A stretch of 64,000 bases of DNA, taken from the IMG/VR virus record IMGVR_UViG_3300008255_000007, positions 1 through 64,000 of that record, one strand, 5' to 3'. This DNA is from a virus. Taxonomy: Duplodnaviria > Caudoviricetes. A program made the position numbers and the translations under genes. The notes beneath the pieces were generated by a model, which had not been told where the DNA came from, did no database searches, and worked only from the letters and a program-made list of their open reading frames with translations. Positions 19,444 to 63,309 of the stretch are shown piece after piece (positions within the stretch are counted from its first letter, which is position 1; the number at the start of each line of letters is the position of its first letter).

Positions 19444-21492
19444 ATGTCAAATATTGGAGAGAGAAATAATCAGTATTTTGCTAGTAAACCTGCCTCAGAA
19501 TGCGCAGCGACATTAGTACAAAAATCAGAACAATGGGATCAAGGGTTAATGTCAAATTCCCATTGGGAGAAGATAAGAAAAGCATGGCAATATTACCATG
19601 GTAGATTCGTAAATGATGTATTTGAGGATAATCATGAAATAAGTTTTACAGGAGATAATGGAGAGTTAGTAAATTTTCCAGTAAATCACTTTAGAAATAT
19701 AGCTCTGCATCTACTCAACATGACAGTAGCACAGCGTCCAAAAGTTAGCGCAGTAGCGGTAAATACGGATTACAAATCACTAACTCAAGCTATCTTAGCA
19801 GATGGTTTATTAGATTACTATCTAAGAGATAAAAGACTAGAAGAACATCTTAAAACAGCAGCTGAACAAGCTATTGTATTAGGCGAAGGCTTTATTAAAA
19901 TGGAATGGGACGCTACAGGTGGAGACGAGTATGGAGTAAACGAAGATACTGGATCTGTTGTATATGAAGGCGACGTAAAATTTACTAATCTATCTACTTA
20001 TGACGTAATTAGAGATATTAATAAAGATAATTTCGGAGATGATGATTGGTTACAAGTTCGTAGTTTTAAAAATAGATTTGATCTTATTGCTAAATATCCA
20101 GAATTTGAAGAACAGATACTATCTATTAAGACTAAAGAATATCAAGAAGCTATAAAATATCCAGGACTGCTTAATGCAAACACTGATGATATTGCTATTT
20201 ATGAATTTTATCATAAACGATCTGAAGCTATGCCGGATGGTCGTTATATGTTGTACGTAAGTAATGATGCAGTTCTTTATGATGGTCCTCTTCCTTATAG
20301 GGAAATTCCAGTATACAGAATAGCTCCTAGTAACTATTTAGGAGGTCCTTTTGGATATACTATTATGTTTGACTTGCTTCCTACTCAAGAAGCATTAAAT
20401 CTTCTATATAGTACTATTATGACTAACCAACATGCTTTTGGAGTTCAGAATATAATGGCTCCAAAAGGTAATGACATAAACTACACACAGCTTGCAGGAG
20501 GTTTAAATTTCATAGAATATACTCCTGGAATGAAACCCGAGTCTTTAAATCTAACTCAAACTCCTGCTGAAATCTTTAATATGGTTGACCGTATTGAAAA
20601 AACTATGGAAACCCTATCTGGTATAAACTCTGTTACTAGAGGAAATCCAGAAGCTAGTTTAGAATCAGGAGCGGCTCTAGCCCTTGTACAATCTCAAGCT
20701 GTTCAGTTTACTTCTAGTCTACAGCAATCCTATGTATACATAGTAGAAAAAGTATGTACATCTCTTATAAAGATGTTACAAGACTTTGCTGACGTTCCGA
20801 GAGTAGCTAATATTGTAGGAAAGTCTAAAAGATCTTACATGAAAGAGTTTACAGGAGAGGACATTAAAGGTATTAACCGAGTTAATATTGAAATGGCCAA
20901 CCCACTATCAAAAACTACCGCTGGTAGATTAGAGATAGCTAACCAGTTAATACAGATGGGATTAGTCAAGAACTTAGATCAGTATTTTACAATACTAAAC
21001 ACTGGAAAACTAGATACTATGATAGAAGGAGATCAAGCAGAACTCTTATTAATTAAATCTGAAAATGAATCAATGATGGAAGGTAAGGAAGTTCCAGTAC
21101 TTGATATAGATAAGCATCAAATGCATATTAATGAGCATAAGTCGCTACTAGCTGATCCTAACTTACGAGCAGATCCTAATTTAGTAGGTTTAGTACTTTC
21201 ACATATTCAGGAGCATATAAATGCTTTACGAATGACAGATCCTGACCTTCTTATGATGACAGGGCAGCAGCCTCTACAGCCGCCTCCGCCTCCTGGTGGA
21301 ATGCCTCCTCCTGGTGCAGCAGGTGAGCCTCTACCTCCAGTAGATGCTATGCAGGGAGGTCCTGTAGCCGATCAGATGGCTCCAATGCCGGATGGTGCCG
21401 CTCCTGACGTTAACATTCCTAATCTACCGTCGCCTCCAGCGCCGTTTGAAGGAGCACCTTTATCACCTGAAGACGTAGACTTACAAGGTTAA
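19444..21492 (+). CDS. Portal protein (P22/podovirus-like) with Pro-rich C-terminal tail
   Basis: 682 aa directly after terminase; SGINSVTRG...SGAALAL segment typical of this portal class. Confidence 0.85.
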   Translation: MSNIGERNNQYFASKPASECAATLVQKSEQWDQGLMSNSHWEKIRKAWQYYHGRFVNDVFEDNHEISFTGDNGELVNFPVNHFRNIALHLLNMTVAQRPKVSAVAVNTDYKSLTQAILADGLLDYYLRDKRLEEHLKTAAEQAIVLGEGFIKMEWDATGGDEYGVNEDTGSVVYEGDVKFTNLSTYDVIRDINKDNFGDDDWLQVRSFKNRFDLIAKYPEFEEQILSIKTKEYQEAIKYPGLLNANTDDIAIYEFYHKRSEAMPDGRYMLYVSNDAVLYDGPLPYREIPVYRIAPSNYLGGPFGYTIMFDLLPTQEALNLLYSTIMTNQHAFGVQNIMAPKGNDINYTQLAGGLNFIEYTPGMKPESLNLTQTPAEIFNMVDRIEKTMETLSGINSVTRGNPEASLESGAALALVQSQAVQFTSSLQQSYVYIVEKVCTSLIKMLQDFADVPRVANIVGKSKRSYMKEFTGEDIKGINRVNIEMANPLSKTTAGRLEIANQLIQMGLVKNLDQYFTILNTGKLDTMIEGDQAELLLIKSENESMMEGKEVPVLDIDKHQMHINEHKSLLADPNLRADPNLVGLVLSHIQEHINALRMTDPDLLMMTGQQPLQPPPPPGGMPPPGAAGEPLPPVDAMQGGPVADQMAPMPDGAAPDVNIPNLPSPPAPFEGAPLSPEDVDLQG

Positions 21493-22726: not shown

Positions 22727-23974
22727 ATGGCAAACGTACCAAACACCGTATCTACCTTAAATGGTAACTTCAAAGAAGTATATGCGGATAAAATTAAACA
22801 ATTAGTCCCTGACAATGTAATGCTTTTGAACATGGTAGACTTTCTACCTTCTGACAAAGCACTAGGCAATGAATATCACCAGCCTGTAATCCTTGGACAT
22901 GAGCATGGATTCAGCTACGGTGGAACTGATGGATCAGCTTTTGCTCTTAACGATGCAATCGCAGGCGTTGTAAAAGATGCTAAAATCCAAGGTTATGAGT
23001 ATGTTCTTCGTACTCAGATTTCATATGCTGCTGCTAGCCGCGCTGCTGCTAGTAAAGCTGCTTTTGAACGATCTACTAAGCTCATCGTAGCTAACATGAT
23101 TCGTTCATTCGCTAAGCGTCTTGAAATTTCAATGTTCTACGGTCAAACACCTCTTGCTACTGTTGGAGCTGGTACTACCACTACTTCATTGGCAATTCCT
23201 GCTGCTGACTGGGCTGCTGGTGTATGGGTAGGTTCTGAACAAGCTGAAGTTGAACTTTTCGACGGTTCAAGCAACACTCTTCGTGGTTCTGCTAAAATCA
23301 ACGCAGTTGATCTTACAGCTCGTACTCTAGGTCTTGCTTCTGCTATCGCAGGTGCAGCTTCTGGAGATACTTTGTACTTCAAGAGTGCTAAAATCCAAGG
23401 ATCTGCTGGACATAATGACCTTAAAGGTCTTCAATCCATCATCCAAGAATCCGCTACTCTTTTCAACATTTCTACTAGCTCTTACAGCTTGTGGAAAGGT
23501 AACACTTACAGTGCAGGTTCTGCTGATCTTTCTTTCGAGAAGATTCAAGAAGCTATTGCTGTAGCTGTTGAAAAAGGTCTTGATGAAGACGTTACATGTA
23601 TTGTTAACCACAAAACATGGGCTAAGCTTTTGACAGATCAAGCTGCTCTTAGAATGTATGATTCTTCATACAGCCGAGAAGTAGCTGAAAACGGTTCTCA
23701 ATCAATCAAGTTCCATTCACAAAATGGTTCTGTTGAGATTCGTCCTTGTACTTATGTTAAAGAATCCCTAGCTTTCGTACTTCCTACTAAGACTTTGATG
23801 CGTGTTGGTTCAACTGACATTACATTCAAACTTCCTGGTCAAGAGTATGAAGATAGATTCTTCCGTGAGTTGGAAAGTAATGCTGGTTTTGAGTTGAGAG
23901 CCTATACCGATCAGGCACTTTTTTGTGACACCCCAGGCAAACTCGTACTCATAACAAATATAGTAAATTCTTAA
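22727..23974 (+). CDS. Major capsid protein
   Basis: 415 aa after scaffold, strong RBS, biased codons, followed by terminator. Confidence 0.85.
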   Translation: MANVPNTVSTLNGNFKEVYADKIKQLVPDNVMLLNMVDFLPSDKALGNEYHQPVILGHEHGFSYGGTDGSAFALNDAIAGVVKDAKIQGYEYVLRTQISYAAASRAAASKAAFERSTKLIVANMIRSFAKRLEISMFYGQTPLATVGAGTTTTSLAIPAADWAAGVWVGSEQAEVELFDGSSNTLRGSAKINAVDLTARTLGLASAIAGAASGDTLYFKSAKIQGSAGHNDLKGLQSIIQESATLFNISTSSYSLWKGNTYSAGSADLSFEKIQEAIAVAVEKGLDEDVTCIVNHKTWAKLLTDQAALRMYDSSYSREVAENGSQSIKFHSQNGSVEIRPCTYVKESLAFVLPTKTLMRVGSTDITFKLPGQEYEDRFFRELESNAGFELRAYTDQALFCDTPGKLVLITNIVNS

Positions 23975-24000: not shown

Positions 24001-24040
24001 AAAGACCTTGCTCTCTTAATTGAAGGCAGGGTCTTTCACT
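24001..24040 (+). terminator. Terminator after major capsid gene
   Basis: AAAGACCTTGC...GCAGGGTCTTT hairpin. Confidence 0.65.
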
Positions 24041-24082
24041 TTAGTGTTGACACATTTTACTTTTGTACATTATAATAATATT

Positions 24083-24712
24083 ATGAAAAAGAAAACACTA
24101 ACATTAGAGCACAGAAAAGCACTTAGCGAAGCTGCTAAGATATCAAATTCTACTAGAGTCTTATCTGAAGAAACTTTAAAGAAGATGAGCGACTCTGCTA
24201 AGAAAAGAGAAGCTGCCAAAGAAGATAAAACTCTACCAGAAGGTATGATTAAACGTAAAGAGCATATATGGCTAAAAGATATAGAGTGTAAAGAGTGCTC
24301 TAAGTGTAAAGGAGTTAAACCTTTAACTGAATTTGGAAAAGATAAAAGTGCTAAATGGGATGGACTAAACTACTACTGTAAAGTATGCCATAATCAGAAT
24401 AGGAAAAAAGCATATAAAACTACTAAAAAATATGAAAATAAATATGCAGTTAATAGAAGAAGACAGTTAAAAATAGAAGCTGTAGAATATAAAGGTGGGA
24501 TATGTCAAAAGTGTGGATTAAAACATGAAACTAATCATAATACCGCCGCTTTCCAGTTCCACCATAGAGACCCCTCTAAGAAAGACTTTACTATAGCAGC
24601 GAGGACTACTACGGTATTAGACAATTTAAAACCAGAATTAGATAAATGCGACTTATTATGTGCCACATGTCATCATATAGTCCACTGGAGCCTTAAAAAA
24701 GACCTAGACTAA
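24083..24712 (+). CDS. HNH endonuclease-like protein with Cys4 zinc motifs (leaderless, start MKKKTL at 24083)
   Basis: CSKC, YCKVC, CQKC, FHHRDP...KCDLLCATCH; TTGACA-N18-TATAAT ends 6 nt before ATG. Confidence 0.85.
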   Translation: MKKKTLTLEHRKALSEAAKISNSTRVLSEETLKKMSDSAKKREAAKEDKTLPEGMIKRKEHIWLKDIECKECSKCKGVKPLTEFGKDKSAKWDGLNYYCKVCHNQNRKKAYKTTKKYENKYAVNRRRQLKIEAVEYKGGICQKCGLKHETNHNTAAFQFHHRDPSKKDFTIAARTTTVLDNLKPELDKCDLLCATCHHIVHWSLKKDLD

Positions 24713-24739
24713 TATCTAAAACTATGATATGCTACTCAA

Positions 24740-24873
24740 GTTCCTAGCGGCGTGGAAAGCAGACACGCTAAACATAGTTAAATAAGACTAGGCTTTCTAG
24801 AAGCCGAAAAGAGAGTAGAAGCTATGGTCCGCATCTCGAAGTCTTAGTAGGAGTAGCGACCTACCTAGGAGCA
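24740..24873 (+). ncRNA. tRNA-like structured RNA with a branched insert in place of the anticodon arm
   Basis: Acceptor GTTCCTAG/CTAGGAGC, D-like GCGTG/CACGC, T-like GTAGG/CCTAC, own promoter TAGACT-N17-TATGCT at 24705-24733. Confidence 0.7.
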
Positions 24874-24893: not shown

Positions 24894-25292
24894 ATGGAAT
24901 CTAAAAAATACTTTATATTTAATAAGGGCGAGAAATTTAAGTTATCTGATAATTTCAGTAGTCATGAACTAGAATGCAAATGTTCTAGAGCTGATTGCAT
25001 AGAACAGAAGATATCCGTAAATTTAATAGAAAAACTACAGAAAATAAGAGAAAAGTTAGGTAAGTCTTTAAAGATTACCAGCGGTTATAGGTGCGAAGCC
25101 CATAACAAAGCTATAGGAGGTGCTGCTAAAAGTCAGCACATTCTAGGAAACGCCGTAGACCTTAAAACAGAGGATATGGACTCTCTAGAAGCTTTAGTAG
25201 AAGTTGAATTTGATGCTGTAGGTAATGCCAAGCCTTCCTTCTTACATGTAGATGTAAGAGATACTAAAAACAAACTAAGATGGACCTATTAA
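24894..25292 (+). CDS. Peptidase M15-family endolysin
   Basis: ITSGYRC..HN..IGGA..SQH..GNAVD and FLHVDVR zinc-peptidase motifs. Confidence 0.9.
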   Translation: MESKKYFIFNKGEKFKLSDNFSSHELECKCSRADCIEQKISVNLIEKLQKIREKLGKSLKITSGYRCEAHNKAIGGAAKSQHILGNAVDLKTEDMDSLEALVEVEFDAVGNAKPSFLHVDVRDTKNKLRWTY

Positions 25293-60169: not shown

Positions 60170-61180
60170 TTAAAATTCTCCGTCTACGATATTAGCAAAG
60201 TTAGGTCTAATTAAAGAAGCTACTTTAGAATTTAGCTGCTTATATATAAGTTTAGAATCTTTCTTATCTAAAGCATCTAACTCTTCAGATTTATCTTTTC
60301 TAAAGTCTTCAATAACATCTTTATTCATAAGTCCCATAAGCTTTCCAAAGTCCTTATCAGTTACTACTCCTATTTTAGATAGAACATTTCTTAGCCTATT
60401 CTCTATTATATATGAAGCTCCTTCATCTATCAAGCTTTTTATATTATCAGGAAGCTCAGGCTTAGGAGCTTTAGGTTTATGTTCTTTTTCAGTGAATTTC
60501 TCATTTTTATTCTTTATAATTACTCTAGTACCGTCGTAGACGAATAAAGGAGTAATAGGTTTAATGATAGTACCTTCACATGTGTTATCCTCAAGCTCGG
60601 GCAATCCTAGCCTAACAGGGATCATAGTGTTAAAAGTATTAGAATGTTCCAAGCACTCATCAAGAGTCCCACTATACAAAGTTTCGCAGAAAGGTATTCC
60701 ATTATTATATAAGAAGCCATTAACATCCTGCACTGAAAGTAAACGTCCGTCTACTACAATATCAAAGCCTATAAAATCTTGCTCTGGATTATAAAATACA
60801 CCTTTTTGAACAGAAGAGTCTCCAGAGGCTTCTACATCTTTATGCGGATAATGTCCTCCATATAGTTCTCCATATACAACTACTGTAGTATCTTCAATAG
60901 GTCTATGAAAAATACCACAAATATTACTATGCAAGTCGCGTAATCCTTTTTCATACTTACTTAGTACTTTTTTATAATTAAAGAACTTCTCTTCTTCTTC
61001 AATGAATCCGGAACGCTTAGCCACTTTTATAGAGTTTTCATCAATCCAAAAGCTTAAATTAGCACCATGTACTTTCTCTTGTACTATATAAGTCTGAGAG
61101 TCGTATCCAGACTCTTTTATTTTGTTTATAAATTTAGTTCTATATGAGTTTTCTATTGAACTGTACTTTTTAAATTCCAT
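60170..61180 (-). CDS. rnl2: RNA ligase 2 family
   Basis: KYSSIEN, motif I EKVHGAN, GELYG, FIGFDI, EGTIIKP, IKNKNEKF, NRLRNVLSKIG C-domain. Confidence 0.92.
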   Translation of the reverse strand: MEFKKYSSIENSYRTKFINKIKESGYDSQTYIVQEKVHGANLSFWIDENSIKVAKRSGFIEEEEKFFNYKKVLSKYEKGLRDLHSNICGIFHRPIEDTTVVVYGELYGGHYPHKDVEASGDSSVQKGVFYNPEQDFIGFDIVVDGRLLSVQDVNGFLYNNGIPFCETLYSGTLDECLEHSNTFNTMIPVRLGLPELEDNTCEGTIIKPITPLFVYDGTRVIIKNKNEKFTEKEHKPKAPKPELPDNIKSLIDEGASYIIENRLRNVLSKIGVVTDKDFGKLMGLMNKDVIEDFRKDKSEELDALDKKDSKLIYKQLNSKVASLIRPNFANIVDGEF

Positions 61181-62897
61181 TAGTAGCTCCTATTACATTT
61201 GATTTAGGTCTTATAGTTTTCATAACTAATTTATCTAAGTTATCAAACTTTCTATATAGTACAGGCCATATAGCCGCCGCACAAAGACCGTTTATCTGCT
61301 TGGCTTTTAACCCTAGTATCTTTTTAAACTCTTCAGAGCCTACGCTGACTTCAGGGTTATCGCACTTAACTCTATCAATTACTTCTGATGCTCTAAGGAG
61401 TAATACTTGAAAAGTGTCTTGGTAGAGATCCTCTAGTTGTCTAGTAAGCTCATCAGCCTCTTTTCTAAATTCTTCAGGAAGTTGTGTTAGATAGTCTATC
61501 TTAACTTTACCATTCTCCATAGACTCATAGAAGGATAAAGGACTCATTTGAGAAATCATCCTGTGGATTCTGCAGTACTCTGCTCCTTTTATCTTAACCC
61601 TAAGTCCTGATTGGAATCTAACTACGAAGCCTTCTTTATCTTTAGGTAGGGTCTTTTGTAAGGCTACCATCTCACCAATAGTATAATTATACTCTTTTAC
61701 TAAAGGCATACCTGAAGTCTTAGAAATAGTAAGTAGCTCGTCTCTAGAGCACTCCTGCTCTGTGACTAAGTTATTAGCAGCTAGTAAGACCAACTCTTCT
61801 CTATTTCCATAATTAGCTACTATTTTATTATCAGGATAGATAATCTCAGCCATAAGAGTAGTAGTTTTAGGTATACTAGACATATCATACTTTTTAAGAA
61901 TCTCTAATCCTTTAACAGCCTGCTCAGAACTAAAAGCCCCACGAGTAGCTACTCTCCACTCATTCTTATAGTTATAAATAATACCAAGACTTCCATCCAT
62001 CTTTTCAGTGACTACGTAAGGTTCGTCTGGCAGATTACTTAGACTAGTCTCAGACATTTCCCCTAAATTAAAAAACTTGGACATAGCACACGCTACTAAC
62101 TTACCAGTAGACTTTTCAAAGATAATACCTCTACTTATTCTAGTAATCTCATTCCAAGCTCTTTCAAATGTGCACTGATCTGTATAGTTGTATAGTACTA
62201 AATCTAAATCATCACTAACTACTCTTCTTACATTCTTAGACTTTACTTCATTCTCAAATGGCATTAAAGTAAGACTAACATCGGAGCTATATTTATTAGT
62301 AAGTCTAGTAGGTATAAAATATTCTCCAGAGTTTTTAAGCTCTAGTATATCGTCTTCACTAAGAAGTTTAAGATCTGCATCGAAACACACGTCTATCATA
62401 TTTCTTTTTTTACGATAATGTCCATGTAAATGTCCGTGAAGATAAAAAGAGTTAGGATTATTAACTGCCCTATATTCTAAGAACCTATTATCCTCTTCTA
62501 TGCAAGGAGGTAAGTGAGTCATATAAACAGAGCTTCCATCCTTAAGAGTAAGAATAGTATCTGTAAATACATCCTTCCATCCAGCGTCTAAGTATTTATT
62601 TCTTTGTTTAGCTAGTTGATTTTGGTCCTTATGGAAAGTCTTAAATCCAGCATCATGATTACCCAGAATTAAATATTTAGTACCATTTAGTTTATTGACT
62701 AGATAAGAGTCAAACACTTTAGATTTACTTATACTAAAATCTCCTAAGAAAAAGACTTTATCATCAACAGCTACTTGAGAGTTCCACTGAGATATAATAG
62801 CTTCATTCATCTCAGCTACATCATTATAAGGGCGGTTACAAAACTGTATAATGTTCTTATGGTGAAAGTGTAAATCTGACGTAAACCATCTAGCCAT
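61170..62897 (-). CDS. Fusion: calcineurin-like metallophosphoesterase plus RNA ligase 1 family (likely start MARWF at 62897)
   Basis: SDLH, LGDF, GNHD, HGHLH then EKMDGSLG, MAEII, EGFVVRF, RVKIK. Confidence 0.9.
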   Translation of the reverse strand: MARWFTSDLHFHHKNIIQFCNRPYNDVAEMNEAIISQWNSQVAVDDKVFFLGDFSISKSKVFDSYLVNKLNGTKYLILGNHDAGFKTFHKDQNQLAKQRNKYLDAGWKDVFTDTILTLKDGSSVYMTHLPPCIEEDNRFLEYRAVNNPNSFYLHGHLHGHYRKKRNMIDVCFDADLKLLSEDDILELKNSGEYFIPTRLTNKYSSDVSLTLMPFENEVKSKNVRRVVSDDLDLVLYNYTDQCTFERAWNEITRISRGIIFEKSTGKLVACAMSKFFNLGEMSETSLSNLPDEPYVVTEKMDGSLGIIYNYKNEWRVATRGAFSSEQAVKGLEILKKYDMSSIPKTTTLMAEIIYPDNKIVANYGNREELVLLAANNLVTEQECSRDELLTISKTSGMPLVKEYNYTIGEMVALQKTLPKDKEGFVVRFQSGLRVKIKGAEYCRIHRMISQMSPLSFYESMENGKVKIDYLTQLPEEFRKEADELTRQLEDLYQDTFQVLLLRASEVIDRVKCDNPEVSVGSEEFKKILGLKAKQINGLCAAAIWPVLYRKFDNLDKLVMKTIRPKSNVIGATNGI

Positions 62898-63309
62898 TAT
62901 AAACCTCGTATATATCATACTCTATTCTAGTTACAGGCTCATAATTTTCTTCATAGAAATCTAGAATCTTATTGGCTAGGGCTTCATCATTAGCAGCTAC
63001 GGTAGGATGGTTATATCTACTAACTACCCTCTCTAGACAAGTAGCTCTAGGAGTTTTAAATTCTATAATGTGGATTGAGTACCCAGCTTCTCTAGCAGGT
63101 ACGATATAACGTGACCTTTGGATACTATTAAAGTTCATACGATCAATTACTATTAATTCTTCTCCAGAGTCTAGAGCTTCCTTAAATGCCTTACGATGTC
63201 CTTTAGATCCTAGCTCATCTTGATTAATTCTAGTATAGTTAGAGTAGTGTTTACAAGATGTAGATTTACCAGCCCCAATAGGTCCTACAAGGACAACTAG
63301 TGTTTTCAT
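62890..63309 (-). CDS. Polynucleotide kinase-like P-loop kinase
   Basis: GPIGAGKST, RINQDEL, VIDRMN, CLERVVSR. Confidence 0.88.
   Translation of the reverse strand: MKTLVVLVGPIGAGKSTSCKHYSNYTRINQDELGSKGHRKAFKEALDSGEELIVIDRMNFNSIQRSRYIVPAREAGYSIHIIEFKTPRATCLERVVSRYNHPTVAANDEALANKILDFYEENYEPVTRIEYDIYEVYNG

Follow-up and report, generated by a model that had tools for sequence, protein, structure and literature searches.

A widespread family of tRNA-shaped, non-decoding phage RNAs with variable inserts, represented by one gene between HNH endonuclease and endolysin genes

The DNA described here is a window of 64,000 nucleotides (positions 1 to 64,000 of IMG/VR record IMGVR_UViG_3300008255_000007, a complete phage genome of 84,152 bp with terminal repeats), and the element of interest occupies positions 24740-24872 of its plus strand, 133 nt within a 181-nt gap between an HNH endonuclease gene and an M15 endolysin gene. 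This element is the gene for a real, strongly constrained RNA that has the shape of a tRNA and does not decode, and it belongs to a huge family carried by phages; membership of that family makes the copy in the window interpretable. We tentatively favor the reading that the tRNA-shaped shell gives release and stability to an exchangeable cargo that would act in trans, and other readings are weighed against it where the evidence bears on them.

The first lead to the family was a blastn match, perfect over 25 nt, in four Pseudomonas syringae phages. The 19-mer that forms the first hairpin of the element, GCGTGGAAAGCAGACACGC, has at least 118 exact matches in IMG/VR, where by our own rough estimate about one or fewer would be expected by chance, and it is present in 101 species-representative genomes, mostly metagenome assembled; these genomes represent Alpha-, Beta-, and Gammaproteobacteria, Planctomycetes, Acidobacteria, Verrucomicrobia, Cyanobacteria, candidate-phyla-radiation bacteria, and others. 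Three different cores of 17 to 19 bases each give at least 118 to 120 matches in that collection. The layout of the window copy is shared by 107 of 121 instances of the 19-mer: a variable 8-nt strand is followed by CG, the hairpin, an insert of 44 to 270 nt, an A, a 5-bp stem with the 8-nt loop NGTAGCGN, and finally the complement of the first strand. This T-like loop marks what we term type 1; when the loop was left free in the search, 107 of 110 members had it, as AGTAGCGC in 47 and as AGTAGCGA, the second commonest form and that of the window, in 21. The window copy displays every defining feature of the family, namely, the covarying helix of 7 to 9 bp with CG, the D-like 5-bp stem with GAAAGCAGA, and the A with the T-like arm. 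With a covariance model of the family, the 84-kb genome yields a single copy, at 80 bits, the window sequence having been part of the training alignment; records mostly hold a single copy, and about one-fifth hold two or three. No family member was found in E. coli genomes, and plasmids yielded only two weak matches.

Searches with the T-like arm of the window copy reached further members. The exact 23-mer comprising this arm and the helix has no match in IMG/VR, and a metagenome scan with the 18-mer of the arm gave 11 matches, about 5 of them family members with other cargos and the rest chance occurrences or associated with a group II intron. Two homologous metagenome contigs (L326 and L332) carry this 18-nt sequence preceded by GTAGTAGTC; in L332, the match lies approximately 170 to 190 nt upstream of group II intron domains V/VI (RF00029, 53 bits). 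The matches in these two contigs are probably due to chance.

The homologues collected in this way allowed the structure to be examined comparatively, and the closing helix and both stems covary. In an alignment of 47 members, 98.8% of the cells pair, compared to 33 to 43% when partner columns are slid; changes on both sides are found at seven of the eight closing-helix pairs and four of the five T-arm pairs, and none of 500 shuffles reaches the observed score. The first hairpin was fixed in this alignment by the search key, and its stem was tested in members fetched via the other module or via the window T arm; these display the stems GCGGG/CCCGC, GCGCT/AGCGC, GCATG/CATGC, GCACG/CGTGC, ATGTG/CACAT, and GTGTG/CACAC around a loop that is constantly GAAAGCAGA. 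Among 217 nonidentical members, positions 1 to 7 of the terminal helix are paired in 96 to 100%, position 8 in 82%, and position 9 in 66%, and pairing beyond this is at the background value of 43%. The family has the geometry of an ordinary tRNA with one or two extra pairs, and it follows the tRNA plan in its 2-nt linker, in having one nucleotide past the D-like arm and an A ahead of the T-like arm, and in the direct abutment of the latter arm on the helix. Positions 1 and 8 of the type 1 T-like loop switch between A..C and G..T, which are isosteric wobble pairs, and this pattern suggests a sixth pair closing a GUAGCG hexaloop. CsrA-type GGA sites in both loops were also considered as candidates and were dropped, as the A is not conserved. 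Other conceivable resemblances are mimicry of the ribosomal GTPase center and pairing of an AGC codon with tRNA-Ser.

The minimum-energy fold of positions 24740 to 24873 (-41.9 kcal/mol; z = -2.86, with 2 of 200 shuffles equally stable) contains the 8-bp helix with its one G-U pair, the 5-bp stem bearing AGTAGCGA, the GCGTG-GAAAGCAGA-CACGC hairpin, and a central stem that closes two small hairpins (Table 1). An initial annotation of the window, made from the sequence alone, had drawn an 8-bp acceptor-like helix abutted by a 5-bp T-like stem, and the fold recovers both; their conservation is backed by the comparative data, as is that of the D-like hairpin, which the annotation had not stressed. 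The noncanonical T loop and the absence of an encoded CCA, both noted there, are confirmed. The fold also contains the two subhairpins that it had proposed within the insert, but the insert does not exceed its shuffles in stability (z = -0.92) and no homologous insert was found. A proposed pseudoknot between CATAGT and GCTATG is not retained, as we estimate that about one such 6-bp match between a linker of 13 nt and the remainder of the insert would be expected by chance.

Table 1. Positions of the parts of the element and of other features in the window
Feature	Position	Strand	Remarks
5' strand of closing (acceptor-like) helix, GTTCCTAG	24740..24747	+	Pairs with 24865-24872
Linker CG	24748..24749	+	In the place of tRNA positions 8-9; CG in 206/217 members
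D-like hairpin, GCGTG / GAAAGCAGA / CACGC	24750..24768	+	Exact consensus 19-mer; 5-bp stem, 9-nt loop
Lineage-specific insert (cargo), 77 nt	24769..24845	+	Replaces anticodon and variable arms
A preceding T-like arm	24846	+	A in 191/217 members
T-like arm, GTAGG / AGTAGCGA / CCTAC	24847..24864	+	Directly abuts 3' strand of helix
3' strand of closing helix, CTAGGAGC	24865..24872	+	Followed by ACTTCTT, no CCA
Possible weak promoter, TAGACT-17-TATGCT	24706..24734	+	8/12 match, below scan threshold; ends 5 nt before helix
HNH endonuclease gene	24083..24712	+	phrog_2255, E = 5e-29; open reading frame 24020-24712, likely ATG at 24083; neighbor, outside the family
Peptidase M15/endolysin gene	24894..25292	+	PF08291, E = 3e-21; phrog_894 endolysin; downstream neighbor
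Portal gene	19444-21492		Upstream of element
Major head gene	22727-23974		Upstream of element
Rnl2-type ligase	60170-61180	-	
Calcineurin-like phosphoesterase fused to Rnl1-type ligase	61170-62918	-	
Polynucleotide-kinase-like protein	62890-63309	-	

The claim that this discrete, structured RNA cannot decode also holds. ARAGORN reported no tRNA or transfer-messenger RNA (tmRNA) either in the window or anywhere in the complete 84-kb genome, even with introns allowed and thresholds lowered, and the insert contains no anticodon-like arm. In Rfam 15, the element has no match, only noise at E values up to 10 and RF00005 not among it, and typical family members match no described family even at E values up to 10. 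Compared with the tRNA family (RF00005), the RNA has neither an anticodon stem-loop nor a canonical D loop (GG) or T loop (UUCRANY); its loops are GAAAGCAGA and AGTAGCGA. CCA after the helix occurs across the family at background frequency at every offset, whereas it is encoded by 78 of the 92 tRNA genes that share these loci, which argues against aminoacylation.

It had been proposed that the RNA might be a precursor from which the insert is removed with the help of the phage ligases, and we weighed this as a route to a decoding tRNA or an adaptor resembling tRNA-Sec. The genome does encode an Rnl2, a phosphoesterase-Rnl1 fusion, and a polynucleotide kinase, and the window helix does consist of 8 bp on 5 bp, but this explanation is scarcely credible: no anticodon stem-loop results from any plausible excision, ARAGORN finds nothing with introns allowed, the Rfam models of ribozymes and of group I and group II introns give nothing at the gathering score, no bulge-helix-bulge signal was found in the element, an RNA ligase is encoded by only 2 of 49 other element-bearing records, and the family differs from neighboring tRNAs in lacking CCA. 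The likeness to tRNA-Sec also falls away, as a family helix of 7 to 9 bp means that the 8+5 count of the window is no tRNA-Sec signature; among the attributes of bacterial tRNA-Sec (8+5 bp, a D stem of 6 bp bearing a loop of 4 nt, the anticodon UCA, and a variable arm that is long), only 8+5 fits, and it fits only this copy, the family having a 5-bp D-like arm with a 9-nt loop and no anticodon arm. The suggestion of a decoy for anticodon nucleases is not supported, given an insert without an anticodon-like arm and main elbow loops that are unlike those of real tRNAs.

The two loops vary in concert. A sister family of equal abundance, type 2 (L364, L366, and L371-L460), was first seen as second copies detected by the family model and retains the CG-GCGTG...CACGC frame around the D loop GAAGGA; its 17-mer has at least 120 exact matches in IMG/VR. 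The T loops of type 2 are of the TATCAAGC, AATCAAGC, TGTCGAAT, or TTTCGAGC kind, tRNA-like with a UCRA core, in at least 72 of 83 resolved members, and GTAGCG occurs in none of them; conversely, none of the 110 type 1 members carries a T loop of the type 2 kind. Such paired, all-or-none switching is what would be expected if the D-like and T-like loops touch one another in the manner of a tRNA elbow, and from this pattern of sequences we infer that they do. One further element (L367, G027:C1:4296-4467, minus strand) joins the 5' frame of the family to a GG-containing D loop and the canonical T arm GCCGG-TTCGAAT-CCGGC, a hybrid that on its sequence links the family to ordinary tRNAs.

These variants also bear on the notion of a new self-cleaving or otherwise catalytic RNA, in which the invariant loop and linker nucleotides would constitute an active site and the insert would be an optional peripheral domain, comparable to twister and hammerhead. 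The members are scattered in phages without gene association, often in several copies, and combine few invariant nucleotides with covarying stems and a size-variable domain, all of which would suit a ribozyme; we nevertheless regard this as very improbable, as loops that can be swapped for tRNA-type loops are hard to square with a fixed catalytic core, the tRNA plan is copied in detail (linker, abutting T arm, and helix length), and no Rfam ribozyme matches even at E values up to 10.

The inserts are the variable part of the family. Nearly all of them are unique (83 of 107 are singletons), the two copies on one contig (L051) carry different inserts, and the insert of the window, which contains many stop codons, has no relative among the family inserts or in the members fetched by its T arm. 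Short motifs common to the cargos amount to only a mild enrichment of hairpin words of the GGCTTT/AAGCC type. One insert family, however, is conserved across five different terminal helices and comprises a covarying hairpin, the invariant loop CACCUGA, and the 3' block AAAGGCUUUGUCGGCCUUUGAGGAU, from which it follows that some cargos are under selection. It is held by Pseudomonas-type phages (L024, L038, L061, L063, L104, L110, L125, and L319, the last being PotUPM1), and CACCUGA and AAAGGCUUUGUCGGCCUUUGAGGAU resemble anti-Shine-Dalgarno and Shine-Dalgarno sequences. In four other records (L094, L122, L187, and L116), a tRNA or tRNA-like gene (Ser-CGA, Leu-CAG, or Pro) makes up the insert and has the same orientation as the shell.

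No conserved neighbor protein was found within 3 kb across the family; the commonest neighbors, each at eight loci or fewer, are methylase/helicase, cI-type repressors, LuxR-type regulators, and ERF, and in temperate phages, the element is often located beside the integrase or the immunity region. Approximately 10 to 20% of the members lie less than 1 kb from tRNA genes, always in the same orientation and in some cases only 2 to 28 nt away. A contig of a metagenome-assembled Rhizobiaceae genome (L146) carries an array of tRNA-Met, element, tRNA-Ser, tRNA-Ser, and tmRNA on one strand with gaps of 9 to 208 nt. Processing of the RNase P type is a candidate route to the mature RNA, by analogy with tRNA geometry and from this close spacing to co-oriented tRNA genes.

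As regards transcription, -10-like hexamers are enriched approximately fivefold at 4 to 8 nt upstream of the helix and are present in about one-fifth of the members. The initial annotation had given the element its own promoter; the proposed sequence matches the consensus at only 8 of 12 positions and is not called by the scan, but the position of its TATGCT fits the family-wide -10 peak. An intrinsic terminator follows within 100 nt in only about 4% of the members. In phage Persinger (L318, 2483-2630), the element begins approximately 10 nt past the integrase stop codon and is followed after 9 nt by a clear intrinsic terminator. Immediately 5' of the HNH start codon in the window lies a sigma-70 sequence with a perfect 12/12 consensus (TTGACA, 18 nt, TATAAT; 24047-24076, plus strand), and the HNH gene, situated between the head and lysis genes, has the appearance of a self-contained insertion. 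There is no terminator between this promoter and the element, and read-through transcription into the element is therefore also likely.

Such an arrangement might suggest an element acting in cis, at which tRNA maturation nucleases would cut the transcript and separate or stabilize the flanking mRNAs, here those of the HNH endonuclease and the M15 lysin, the excised RNA having no role of its own. The scarcity of downstream terminators, the location of members between co-oriented genes (in the window, 27 nt past the HNH stop codon and 21 nt before the lysin start codon), and the perfect HNH promoter with no terminator ahead of the element are compatible with this proposal. We consider it improbable, as the distance to the start codon of the next gene is broad and shows no coupling (60 nt or less in only 15 of 76 cases), the -10-like hexamers at the helix and the Persinger terminator suggest independent RNA genes, and the invariant loops and conserved cargo families would be left unexplained.

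In the scaffold reading that we tentatively favor, the terminal helix of 7 to 9 bp (8 in the window) would stack on the 5-bp T-like arm, the 5-bp D-like arm would follow the 2-nt linker, and the two loops would dock as an elbow. The closed ends and compact L-shape would permit release of the RNA from phage transcripts or its transcription from a promoter immediately at the helix, and the shell would survive nucleases much as a tRNA does, leaving the exchangeable cargo to serve as an effector that would bind RNA or protein of the host or the phage. The contact between the loops, the processing and stability of the RNA, its action in trans, and the targets of the cargo are all put forward here as deductions. 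Several observations weigh against the scheme. Most of the inserts fold barely better than their shuffles (mean z = -0.46 over the family, the window value being that given above), and the cargos could be tolerated filler and not effectors; antisense targets of the window cargo in its own genome are at chance level. The rarity of terminators means that many members may be mere internal parts of mRNAs. CCA is one of the contacts used by bacterial RNase P, and its absence removes that contact. The 12 sequencing runs listed for the phage are all DNA, with the label of an aquifer metagenome, and none is RNA; one of these runs contains nearly the entire stretch and may be where it came from. Finally, loops and stems that are this invariant across phages of many phyla exceed what a scaffold needs and point to a specific partner of the shell.

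This last point leads to the main rival reading, in which the shell itself is active, as a mimic of tRNA shape that would bind or titrate a factor shared by very different bacteria (RNase P, a tRNA-binding enzyme, the ribosome, or a widespread tRNA-sensing defense protein, for example), with the insert as a tolerated variable arm. It would explain better than a scaffold does why GCGTG-GAAAGCAGA-CACGC, the CG linker, and GTAGCG are so extremely conserved over hosts of many phyla, and it accords with the weak structure of most inserts, with the absence of a phage-encoded partner nearby, and with the GC-rich 19-mer of the window, which is kept unchanged in a region of 37% GC. We think it unlikely all the same: with three interchangeable elbow types, one of them canonical, the precise sequence of the loops can be dispensed with; selection acts on one cargo family or more; and the main loops do not look like the loops of real tRNAs that a decoy for enzymes specific to tRNA would be expected to copy.

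Among known RNAs, the closest in architecture is species 1 RNA of phage T4 (rnaC), which resembles the family in its 7-bp terminal helix, abutting T arm, large structured insert in place of the anticodon arm, and position among co-oriented tRNA genes; it differs from type 1 in having a canonical UUCGAAU T loop and in lacking the GCGUG-GAAAGCAGA-CACGC hairpin. Over the tRNA region of T4, the family model (R1) reaches no more than 6.1 bits (E = 1.1) and does not identify rnaC or rnaD as sequence homologues, and the relation to rnaC is one of architecture without demonstrable homology. The octamer GAGUAGCG, which matches the T-like loop of the family, occurs twice in rnaC (L489, 1409-1547, minus strand); one copy falls inside a predicted 10-bp stem, and the match may thus be a coincidence.

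Likeness to the T4 species RNAs had been suggested in the initial annotation together with likeness to YrlA, and only the former survives. Y RNAs (RF02553) are non-decoding RNAs with a tRNA-like module that occur in phages near tRNA genes; Ro60 binds to the stem formed by their terminal helix, and they are accompanied by Ro60/Rsr. In YrlA and the Y RNAs, the tRNA-like part is internal, whereas the present family has no Rfam match and no conserved neighbor, and TROVE (PF05731), the Ro60 domain, is absent from the 84-kb genome. The topology of tmRNA is the same as that of the family, with an acceptor helix formed by the two ends, an analogue of the D loop, an insert of very large size, and a T arm; tmRNA differs, however, in its canonical T loop, G-U identity pair, CCA, and tag reading frame. 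The third closing pair is G-U in only 1 of 47 family members, and the window element, with no ARAGORN tmRNA call, no CCA, and a stop-rich insert, has neither the CCA domain nor the tag frame of a tmRNA.

A precedent for tRNA-like processing that yields a trans-acting phage RNA is provided by the C4 (P1/P7) and CI (P4) immunity RNAs, small antisense RNAs cut from phage transcripts by RNase P, and many family members lie in early or immunity regions beside cI-type repressors or integrase; the family differs in that it has no sequence or Rfam match to these RNAs, and complementary target sites were not found in this phage. An engineered parallel is the "tRNA scaffold" of Ponchon and Dardel, in which an arbitrary RNA reportedly takes the place of the anticodon arm and the acceptor, D, and T arms are retained, giving a chimera that is said to be processed and stable in bacteria. 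That construct is man-made and based on a real tRNA with canonical loops and a CCA end, whereas the family is natural, has in its main type elbow loops of its own, and encodes no CCA.

The remainder of the locus conforms to the setting first described for the element, beside an HNH gene and between capsid and lysin genes, with the HNH and major head genes upstream and the M15 peptidase gene downstream. The phage itself has few relatives in the collections searched: a nucleotide search of GenBank phages gave only the 25-nt Pseudomonas match and a short match to a Pelagibacter phage in a structural gene, and searches with neighboring proteins gave one relative without the element for the capsid, none for the HNH protein, and distant matches for the M15 peptidase. 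A complete RNA repair gene set occupies window positions 60170 to 63309 on the minus strand. It resembles the Pnkp/Rnl kit that T4 uses against anticodon nucleases, yet this phage has no tRNA genes.

tRNA-like noncoding RNAs of phages are known (T4 rnaC, T4 rnaD, and YrlA), but the family, its elbow types, and its layout of scaffold and cargo are apparently uncatalogued. No description of the family was found in the literature searched, literal sequence strings included; a 2023 catalogue of 10,006 unnamed candidate RNAs from IMG/VR may contain it (PMC10690425). In the cultured phages with an element, namely, Persinger, PotUPM1, D14H, Orimi01/Orisa, and POI1126, it has been left without annotation. 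Among these, the Pseudomonas phages Persinger, PotUPM1, and Orimi01 and the Ochrobactrum phage POI1126 offer cultured carriers in which a role of the T4 "species" RNA type could be tested.

In a wider proposal, which we consider possible but doubtful, the family would constitute a natural tRNA scaffold system common to phages of many phyla, with at least three interchangeable elbow types and a chassis recognized by a universal host factor, in which recombination between the flanks, which are conserved, would exchange unrelated cargos, whole tRNAs included. If true, the system would amount to a major class of phage noncoding RNA not described before and a natural counterpart to the engineered scaffold, and it would also explain the 50-year-old species 1 RNA of T4. 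Such conservation and spread without a protein partner implies a function that is needed by phages of very different hosts, and the family may represent a general way to make and stabilize small RNAs or to engage the universal tRNA biology of the host.

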